Shown piece after piece: positions 1 through 741 of a stretch of DNA of 42,579 bases. This DNA comes from Verrucomicrobiota bacterium (GTDB lineage: Bacteria; Verrucomicrobiota; Verrucomicrobiia; Limisphaerales; JADLHS01), in the NCBI GenBank assembly GCA_031423875.1, contig JANPGI010000034.1, positions 1-42,579 on the forward strand, read 5' to 3'. A program made the translations under genes and the position numbers. The notes beneath the pieces are model-generated. The model searched no databases. It was not told the origin of the DNA and saw only the letters and a program-made list of their open reading frames with translations. The stretch's first letter is position 1. The number at the start of each line of letters is the position of its first letter.

Positions 1-648
1 AAGGCGCTCGCGGAGTTTGGCCTGCCCACTCAGAAGAAATGGTGGCTGTGCAAAGACATCGCCGAAGTGCTGAAAGTTTATCGCAAAGAAATCGTCGCCG
101 ATTACGACGAAGACCGCGACCTTCGACGGCAGTTGCCCTACGAGATTGATGGATTGGTGCTGAAGGTGAATCGCTTCGATGATTGCGCGAAGATTCCGGG
201 CAAGACCCGCGCGCCCGGCTACGCCATCGTCCACAAACCCATCCCGTGGATTACGCCCGCCGAGACAATTTTGCGCGCCATCACGATTCAAGTCGGTCGC
301 ACCGGCGTGCTGACGCCCGTGGCGGAACTTGAACCCGTGTTCGTGCAAGGCTCGACGATCTCCCGCGCCACGTTGCACAACGAGGACGAAATCCGCCGCA
401 AGGACATCCGCATCGGCGACACCGTGGTCATCCGCAAAGCCGGCATGGTGATTCCTGAAGTGCTGGAAGTGTTGAAATCCAAACGTCCAGCCGGTGCGAA
501 GGAATTTGATCTGTTCCAGTTCGTCGGTGGCAAATGCCCCGCGTGCGGTGGTCCGATTGCGAAAGAGAAGCTGCAAACAGTTCTGAAAAAGGAGTCGCGC
601 GAAGGACGCGAGGGCTGCGATGTAAAACTGGTTGTTTTATCTTCCTAA
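1..648 (+). CDS. ligA: NAD-dependent DNA ligase LigA, N-terminal part (end of the adenylation domain, OB fold, first CxxC of the Zn finger). The 5' end lies outside the window. It ends at an in-frame TAA at 646-648.
   Basis: Frame 1 is open from nt 1. Motifs seen: PYEIDGLVLKVN (nucleotidyltransferase motif IV-like), APGYAIVHKP (motif V-like), OB-fold RAITIQVGRTGVLTPVAELEPV, HNEDEIRRKDIRIGDTVVIRKAGMVIPEV, then CPACGG. LigA homology continues in the same frame after the stop. Confidence 0.85.
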   Translation, partial: KALAEFGLPTQKKWWLCKDIAEVLKVYRKEIVADYDEDRDLRRQLPYEIDGLVLKVNRFDDCAKIPGKTRAPGYAIVHKPIPWITPAETILRAITIQVGRTGVLTPVAELEPVFVQGSTISRATLHNEDEIRRKDIRIGDTVVIRKAGMVIPEVLEVLKSKRPAGAKEFDLFQFVGGKCPACGGPIAKEKLQTVLKKESREGREGCDVKLVVLSS

Positions 649-681
649 CCTTCGTCCCCTTCGCGTCCTTCCCACGACATT
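577..681 (+). other. Hairpin-forming insert of about 105 nt in the LigA Zn-finger loop. It carries the in-frame TAA (646-648).
   Basis: The typical LigA spacing is CPxCG, about 12 aa, then RCxN. Here about 50 codons separate CPACGG from WRCQN. GAAGGACGCGA (601-611) is the exact reverse complement of TCGCGTCCTTC (661-671). The right arm contains CCTTC three times. Boundaries are approximate. Confidence 0.5.
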
Positions 682-741
682 GAGCCGGAAGAAGAAGTTG
701 CATGGCGCTGTCAGAACGTTGCCGGTTGCCCCGCGCAACTC

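Follow-up and report, generated by a model that had tools for sequence, protein, structure and literature searches.

How can a gene for an enzyme that is normally essential, the NAD-dependent DNA ligase LigA, be interrupted by a stop codon? This question is raised by contig JANPGI010000034.1 of a Verrucomicrobiota bacterium (assembly GCA_031423875.1), the entire 42,579-nt stretch of which is called the window here. The window opens inside ligA, and the N-terminus of LigA is therefore cut off by its edge. From position 1 to 1647, reading frame 1 of ligA is open throughout except for one TAA codon at 646-648, and there is no frameshift in the gene. As described below, the stop codon lies in a hairpin-forming repeat, which 42 related proteins carry as an open, in-frame insert. 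The change of a CAA codon into TAA within this repeat is probably recent or artefactual, and not programmed. The loop of LigA that accommodates the repeat hosts many more families of such elements in the relatives.

The interrupted ligA gene and its hairpin insert

The product of ligA is 84-87% identical (E = 0) to full-length NAD-dependent LigA proteins of uncultured Verrucomicrobiota/Limisphaerales, which carry PF01653, PF03120, PF03119, PF12826 and PF00533; the nearest proteins are at most 87% identical. Since the homology extends over the adenylation, OB, zinc-finger, HhH and BRCT domains, the product is, by its sequence, an NAD-dependent LigA. A close relative of it matches Escherichia coli LigA (PDB 2OWO) with E = 8e-138, and an insert-free relative, P0018, aligns with the latter over the CxxC ... 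CxxxxxC motif, which is located between OB fold and HhH domain and is shared by the window. The spacing within the motif differs, however. The second and third cysteines are separated by 14 residues in E. coli (counted from the alignment) and by 12 in other Verrucomicrobia, whereas in the clade of the window 19 residues are found when the insert is absent and 50-80 when it is present.

The TAA codon separates the first cysteine pair of the zinc finger, located upstream, from the second pair (codons 709-711 and 727-729, within a 12-residue segment at 703-738). As the original prediction stated, it is the only in-frame stop between the two halves of LigA, and no in-frame ATG, GTG or TTG is present between 649 and 741; the first is the ATG at 742. 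That a truly split gene would leave the second cysteine pair untranslated is borne out as well, since a restart at ATG 742 lies past both cysteines, and the pair would be lost. A scan of positions 400-900 revealed no promoter-like site, and the terminator signals in this region were no better than chance. A perfect Shine-Dalgarno-like AAGGAG is located at 588-593, just inside the sequence flanking the insert on its left. No start codon is suitably spaced from it, but a role as an internal pause site is conceivable.

The segment containing the stop codon had been predicted to comprise about 105 nt and to fold back on itself. When compared with insert-free alleles, it measures ~102-104 nt, but its boundaries are not sharp, since the inserted sequence takes the place of about 8 codons and is not a plain addition. 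The sequence GAAGGACGCGA (601-611) is exactly reverse-complementary to TCGCGTCCTTC (661-671), and the inverted repeat extends to 21 nt with 86% complementarity (594-614/658-678). The 95-nt segment 590-684 folds at -40.6 kcal/mol as compared with -24.7 +/- 3.1 for shuffled sequences (z = -5.06), and none of 200 shuffles was as good. With wider flanks (560-720), z is only -1.88; thus, the folding signal belongs to the insert itself. Within the insert, 9-nt units are repeated in tandem, with GCGAAGGNN making up the left arm and CCTTCGCNN the right arm. Four right-arm units, CCTTCGNNN, are present in the window, three in its closest relatives and 3-5 in other alleles of the same type, and CCTTC does recur three times in the right arm, at 649, 658 and 667. 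In length, the insert of the window is in frame, with 9 nt more than in the relatives, and one of its codons is the stop. A search of Rfam at gathering thresholds yielded nothing except the tRNA-Tyr, and segment 480-800 gave sub-threshold matches to generic hairpins only.

The insert and the reading frame in relatives

The loop between CPACGG and VAW(R/Q)C was taken from the 355 related proteins that were fetched. It has no insert in 123 of them (e.g., PIAKEKVSDGESEA) and an insert of the same type as in the window, designated type A, in 42; the rest carry other families at this site. Most LigA proteins lack the segment, as predicted, but it is not peculiar to the window, and its presence or absence is polymorphic among orthologs. 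In the relatives, the type A insert encodes LQ..K-SRExxEG...PSxPSRD, and it is in frame and open in all 42 Verrucomicrobial LigA proteins that contain it. DNA was available for seven orthologous type A loci. In each of these, the codon aligned with the TAA of the window is a sense codon, i.e., CAA in six and CAG in one, and the TCC that precedes the stop aligns with TCG. In the other type A alleles, the residue at the stop-aligned position is Q, D, E, V, N, K or H. Because of this variability, the position is considered unconstrained and is often one mutation away from a stop. The hairpin is conserved in the seven orthologs, with z values ranging from -3.2 to -7.9 and 0 of 200 shuffles being as good in each case, and the consensus structure consists of 26 pairs, one of which shows G-C / C-G / U-G exchange. 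The hairpin-forming palindrome is, indeed, more stable than expected by chance.

Purifying selection has continued downstream of the stop codon. On the terminal branch of the window in a three-taxon decomposition, the ratio of the nonsynonymous (dN) to the synonymous (dS) substitution rate is 0.040 upstream and 0.054 downstream of the stop, with dS being ~0.4-0.8. In pairwise comparisons with type A relatives, the ratio is 0.03-0.13 upstream and 0.05-0.08 downstream (dS 0.55-2). Private changes of the window at columns that are invariant in 40 relatives were found neither upstream (0/127) nor downstream (0/158), and other sequences have 0-4 of them at these 158 downstream columns. Within the 18 codons 688-741, there are 4-8.5 synonymous and 0-1 nonsynonymous differences from six of the seven relatives, and 3.5 nonsynonymous differences from the remaining one, L090. 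These codons would not be translatable after a restart at ATG 742, yet they differ mostly synonymously, which excludes an old split with a restart at this position. Neither relaxed selection nor further lesions were detected downstream in ligA of the window. Hence, the decay that was named originally as a possible sign of an ordinary pseudogene is absent, and an old pseudogene is ruled out. The stop codon would then be very young, or not real, or not stopping translation.

A changed meaning of the codon is not indicated within the window, the rest of the genome being unseen: TAA terminates 8 other open reading frames (ORFs) there, and the sole tRNA is Tyr-GTA. The window comprises ~40 densely packed ORFs, and the other pairs of neighboring ORFs in the same frame are unrelated, complete genes. 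Among the 30 ORFs that were checked with Pfam, no split gene besides ligA and no other ligase domain were found. Thus, ligA is the sole broken gene seen in an otherwise clean stretch.

Explanations for the stop codon

The favored course of events starts with a type A palindromic repeat that sits in frame between the second and the third cysteine of the C4 zinc finger of LigA in a Limisphaerales-like lineage, where relatives translate it as a Ser/Pro/Glu-rich loop. One glutamine codon in the apical, unpaired part of the hairpin, which reads CAA in the nearest relatives, would then have been turned into TAA by a single C-to-T change. This change may be an artefact, i.e., an erroneous base call or consensus, an allele carried by a minority, or an assembly path that was mis-threaded through the repeat. 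Alternatively, it may be a nonsense mutation so recent that the downstream sequence is unchanged. A recent or artefactual change is considered the probable explanation because 42 relatives are open, the path from CAA to TAA takes one step, and no positive signal of recoding was found. The original prediction, the sequence observations of which were confirmed, had offered four options, and its interpretation is partly supported: error or very recent mutation is favored, old pseudogenisation is excluded, and readthrough and bypass are without positive support.

Several points weigh against a recent or artefactual change. As the ligase is normally essential, a consensus sequence should seldom carry a nonsense allele. 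The cleanliness of the rest of the window (~40 ORFs mapped, 30 checked with Pfam, none apparently split) speaks against a generally error-prone assembly. Furthermore, there are two adjacent differences from the relatives, which have TCG CAA vs. TCC TAA in the window, the top of the hairpin is rebuilt, and a 9-nt unit has been gained directly 3' of the stop; consequently, the stop could be older than a one-step change would imply. Finally, no conspecific genome or contig was found and, hence, no second allele at position 646 with which to compare. Exact look-ups of three window proteins gave no match, although the chosen starts may differ from the database calls, and homology searches with the N-terminal and C-terminal halves of LigA gave best matches of 85% and 89% identity, respectively. 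The only match in a metagenome scan for TTATCTTCCNAACCTTCGTCC (L091) was in an unrelated membrane-protein gene and was rejected as a chance match.

A special case of artefact, which is counted within the preferred explanation and is by itself rather unlikely, is an assembly chimera. The assembly path would have entered via the left flank of ligA and the shared arm, taken the loop of another, non-coding copy of the repeat, and exited via the opposite arm, so that both the TAA and the additional 9-nt unit would stem from another locus. In line with this possibility, divergence within the insert is greatest at the hairpin top (615-657), the arms being near consensus, and a left-arm-like copy is present outside ligA (L017:1106-1148). 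Also, related contigs break at the ligA loop. For example, L092 (JGI Ga0374055_0037031), a 17.9-kb metagenome contig, starts 8 nt before MRRVEYF, with its positions 1-9 just 3' of the zinc-finger loop, which suggests that hairpin repeats break short-read assemblies at this site. However, no second type A copy was found in the 42.6-kb window or in ~100 kb of the flanks of type A relatives, the partial copy in L017 being the single one seen outside ligA. Moreover, the perfect arms of 14-21 nt are below the k-mers expected of a short-read assembler, and the loop differs from that of L081 at ~13 of 36 positions (counted from alignment A1), no more than the measured dS would give.

It is improbable that the TAA is real and fixed and that ribosomes either hop, with peptidyl-tRNA-Ser moving from the TCC at 643-645 to the TCC at 655-657 or 670-672, or read through a weak UAA-C by means of a near-cognate tRNA, thereby producing a one-chain ligase. 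This scenario would be consistent with the recurrence in frame of the codon before the stop, 12 and 27 nt downstream, with the position of the stop inside a very stable hairpin, and with the strong purifying selection downstream, which includes the codons before any restart site. In addition, the gene is essential, the rest of the window is clean, and mobile elements are known to carry bypass cassettes. The locus is reminiscent of the T4 gene 60 cassette and the byps of Magnusiomyces mitochondria in that it combines a mobile insert in an essential gene, a stop after a recurring codon and strong local RNA structure. In bypass systems, the gap is non-coding, and homologs retain the matched codons as well as the stop or hungry codon, whilst gene 60 bypass also needs a Shine-Dalgarno-like element and a nascent-peptide signal (bioRxiv 10.1101/2022.08.31.505936). 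In contrast, the insert studied here is open in every relative, with the stop in 0 of the 42 related type A alleles, and no second sequence shows it to be conserved. The TCC codons that had prompted the suggestion of bypass are in frame at 643, 655 and 670, with the stop directly after the first, but this arrangement carries little weight. Relatives without the stop read TCG CAA CCT TCG CGT CCT TCG, where TCG recurs at +9 and +18. As 9 nt equals three codons, whichever codon precedes the stop-aligned position is repeated in frame in all alleles; the TCC match simply follows from the 9-nt periodicity and is no signal. The putative gap consists of pyrimidine-rich CCUUCG units; segment 649-672 reads CCTTCGTCCCCTTCGCGTCCTTCC and contains no GAGG or GGAG, whereas a Shine-Dalgarno-like GAGG is conserved in the gene 60 family. 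The gap is also in frame and otherwise open, leaving one codon alone to explain. A frameshift route around the stop was rejected: no stop interrupts the +1 frame between 632 and 838, but two compensating shifts would be required. If bypass did occur, the locus would be a chromosomal bacterial counterpart of the yeast mitochondrial byps and the T4 gene 60 cassette, and recoding would have arisen to rescue an essential gene in which a repeat element had settled.

A ligase made in two pieces is very improbable. The N-terminal part would end at the TAA, and the C-terminal part would restart at a non-canonical codon, e.g., the ATT at 679-681. The further proposal that one zinc ion, bound by a CxxC from each chain, would join the halves, comparable to the zinc hook of Rad50, is just as doubtful. 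The break does lie exactly between the cysteine pairs, codons 688-741 are under protein-level constraint, and an adjacent, conserved gene encodes a free-standing Zn-finger-HhH module. Against this, segment 649-708 contains no ATG, GTG or TTG and no Shine-Dalgarno motif, and no relative is split at this site. We know of no precedent for a two-piece LigA. Database fragments that start at MRRVEYF or end after CPACGG were rejected as evidence for recurrent splitting of ligA at the loop, as they trace to contig ends or frameshift-ridden assemblies. Of the two ligA fragments that were traced, the one in L092 is due to the contig end, and the other is on a long contig, L093, in which ligA is in four pieces, a sign of an error-rich assembly; many other fragmentary LigA proteins in the databases show frameshifted translations.

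Lastly, an established pseudogene with another ligase as a backup, to which the in-frame stop in a normally essential gene might point and for which the genome beyond the visible 42.6 kb would offer room, is equally improbable and close to refuted for all but a very recent event, given the absence of a second lesion and of private changes, the low dN/dS downstream on the branch of the window and the lack of another ligase domain among the Pfam-scanned ORFs.

Taken alone, the stop codon is most likely an error or a new mutation, and it is important chiefly as a prompt to inspect the reads. If it were real and fixed, it would represent a rare case of chromosomal bypass or readthrough that rescues an essential gene.

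Hairpin-repeat families in the LigA loop and beyond

Across the relatives, the zinc-finger loop of LigA hosts at least 12 unrelated hairpin-repeat families, all of them in frame and open (Table 1). The insert families for which DNA was available are hairpins. The insert types are scattered over a neighbor-joining tree of LigA, suggesting that its occupancy changes through repeated insertion, through loss or through recombination; the tree is too star-like to count independent insertions or to tell them from recombination of the loop cassette.

Table 1. Features of the ligA locus, families of inserts in the LigA loop and related elements in the window (+, forward strand).
Feature	Location	Strand	Basis or remarks
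ligA, 5' part	1..645	+	End of adenylation domain, OB fold, first Cys pair; translation and homology
First Cys pair of C4 zinc finger (CPAC)	535..546	+	Translation; P0018 alignment to 2OWO CPVCGS...ARCTGGLICGAQ
Type A insert relative to insert-free alleles, ~102-104 nt	575..678	+	DNA alignment A1 against L004, L006; loop census
Left arm of hairpin, GCGAAGG-type 9-nt units	594..614	+	Inverted repeat, folding
In-frame TAA in unpaired apical part of hairpin	646..648	+	Translation, alignment, folding
ligA, 3' part	649..1647	+	Second half of Zn finger, HhH, clade-specific insertion, BRCT; TGA 1645-1647 ends ORF
Extra 9-nt unit CCTTCGTCC	649..657	+	Alignment and loop census
Right arm of hairpin	658..678	+	Inverted repeat, folding
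Codons between stop and first possible restart, with second Cys pair	688..741	+	Evolved as translated frame-1 sequence
Stand-alone Zn-finger + HhH paralog of LigA C-terminus	2393..3067	+	Two genes downstream of ligA; HHH_2
GGTAGGGC...GTCCTACC hairpin element, like family E	5697..5771	.	Inverted-repeat search
Intergenic hairpin repeat, copy 1 (family C)	24105..24170	.	LPPEGGVP encoded by core CTGCCGCCTGAAGGCGGCGTTCC
Intergenic hairpin repeat, copy 2 (family C)	28445..28512	.	Same family as copy 1
Family A	LigA loop		Peptide SRE...PSRD
Family B	LigA loop		Peptide LSPSDGER
Family C	LigA loop		Peptide LLPPEGGVP
Family D	LigA loop		Peptide EPTHVGCY
Family E	LigA loop		Peptide GRAELPLGQD..QQRVPT
Family F	LigA loop		Peptide SPVSS..HGQDARAT
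Family I	LigA loop		Peptide TSPQSK..LAELVPPT
Family K	LigA loop		Peptide GQASRLS..RRDACPT
Family L	LigA loop		Peptide SSPEGGEGRGEE..PSPQPSPRLGGERE
Families G, H and several singletons	LigA loop		Remainder of at least 12

Some of these families also occur outside the loop. The two intergenic copies of family C in the window share an identical 24-nt arm, GCTGCCGCCTGAAGGCGGCGTTCC, one frame of which encodes LPPEGGVP, the very peptide that is found inside the zinc-finger loop of the LigA of relative P0010. The element at 5697-5771, which is located at the 5' end of a HupE/UreJ ORF, has ends that match those of a family seen in L002 within the LigA loop and in L003 and L009 at a second site of LigA. 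This GGTAGGG...CC(C)TACC family was detected in five places: at 5697-5771 in the window, L003:1698-1764, L009:3706-3772, L086:4527-4601 and L002:4580-4630. The second insertion site, IPLEL^LLEVRGEAY, is in the adenylation domain, and the inserts of L003 and L009 are in frame there (IPLEL-VGTRSTAS...VERVPT-LLEVRGEAY); L004 and P0072 carry a different element at this site. Further in-frame, repeat-like inserts at other positions of LigA, such as YRSGDASSP...RLRRGVAAT just before PFESHAEML and KPERRAPSRL.../KPERGALLRA... just before BRCT, were seen in relatives P0007, P0041, P0067 and P0068, and in P0050, P0282, P0313 and P0333.

The paralog of the LigA C-terminus falls just under the curated cut-off of DNA_ligase_ZBD in Pfam (25.7 vs. 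25.8 bits). Its own zinc-finger loop contains an in-frame hairpin insert (GWGERP...GVSPHQP) with arms at 2500-2531 and 2544-2575. The window, L001, L082, L085 and L086 have this insert, whereas L081 and L090 lack it. Between ligA and the paralog lies an ORF (1607-2386) for which a hydrophobic segment at the N-terminus is predicted and which matched nothing in Pfam; L082, L085 and L090, but not L086, have an ORF at this place. L001 (CAZLOH010000021.1), the closest match in the genome collection with 93% identity in the N-terminal part, bears the title 'uncultured Bifidobacterium sp.' However, its ligA is of the Verrucomicrobial type, contains a type B insert and is followed by the same paralog, which suggests a wrong bin label or a contaminating contig.

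Two other hairpins in the window look like kin to repetitive extragenic palindromic (REP)-like repeats. One, at 3068-3177, has 31-nt arms and lies between the convergent genes for the paralog and a protein of the alpha-amylase family; the other, at 25755-25825, has 24-nt arms and lies just upstream of priA. In LigA itself, a charged segment of ~45 residues (~1135-1275), probably helical, is found clade-wide between the HhH and BRCT domains and is without counterpart in the E. coli protein, query residues 592-654 being unaligned to 2OWO. An AlphaFold2 model of P0001, based on a 36-sequence alignment, was too poor for the insert (mean predicted local distance difference test score 48.6) and was not used.

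The closest precedent for the elements in the LigA loop is provided by the Rickettsia palindromic elements (RPEs). These are inserted in frame in unrelated, often essential genes, are translated, and are found also in non-coding DNA (PMC10969869). The elements in the clade of the window are likewise palindromic, in frame, translated as a fold-compatible extra peptide and also present in non-coding DNA. The 42 type A alleles of the relatives are read through in this way; the insert of the window has an in-frame length but contains one stop codon. The copies seen outside the loop or at several places differ between families, from the one partial extra copy of type A to the two intergenic copies plus the P0010 loop of type C and the five places of the GGTAGGG...CCCTACC family. 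Whereas RPEs are AT-rich elements of ~100-150 bp in an obligate intracellular alphaproteobacterium, the elements described here are GC-rich hairpins in free-living Verrucomicrobiota, with inserts of ~70-125 nt (hairpin proper ~50-85 nt). In addition, one loop hosts at least 12 families here, with presence/absence turnover among close relatives; such multi-family turnover at one loop was not found described for RPEs. REPs, bacterial interspersed mosaic elements and bacterial miniature inverted-repeat transposable elements (ERIC, Correia and Chunjie) are also short, imperfect, dispersed palindromes that are mostly intergenic and vary in copy number, like the intergenic copies in the window (24105-24170, 28445-28512, 25755-25825 and 3068-3177). 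In contrast, neither a REP-associated transposase nor terminal inverted repeats accompanied by target-site duplication were identified in the present case. No transposase domain was found among the Pfam-scanned window ORFs, although 42.6 kb is too little to judge. Mitochondrial genes of Nematomorpha are reported to contain coding palindromes, both arms of which are translated (PMC6649704). They resemble the present case in having long inverted repeats embedded in protein-coding genes, but they are perfect repeats of up to 284 bp in animal mitochondria. To our knowledge, they have no link to dispersed bacterial repeat families.

The repeated use of one loop by many hairpin families appears to be new, as far as found. 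A surface loop of an essential replication enzyme, the corresponding loop of its paralog and a site in the adenylation domain all take hairpin repeats. This extends the picture of selfish DNA in protein-coding genes, as known from Rickettsia, to free-living bacteria. These LigA proteins also offer a natural experiment on where proteins tolerate insertions and on whether such sites are targeted or merely permissive.

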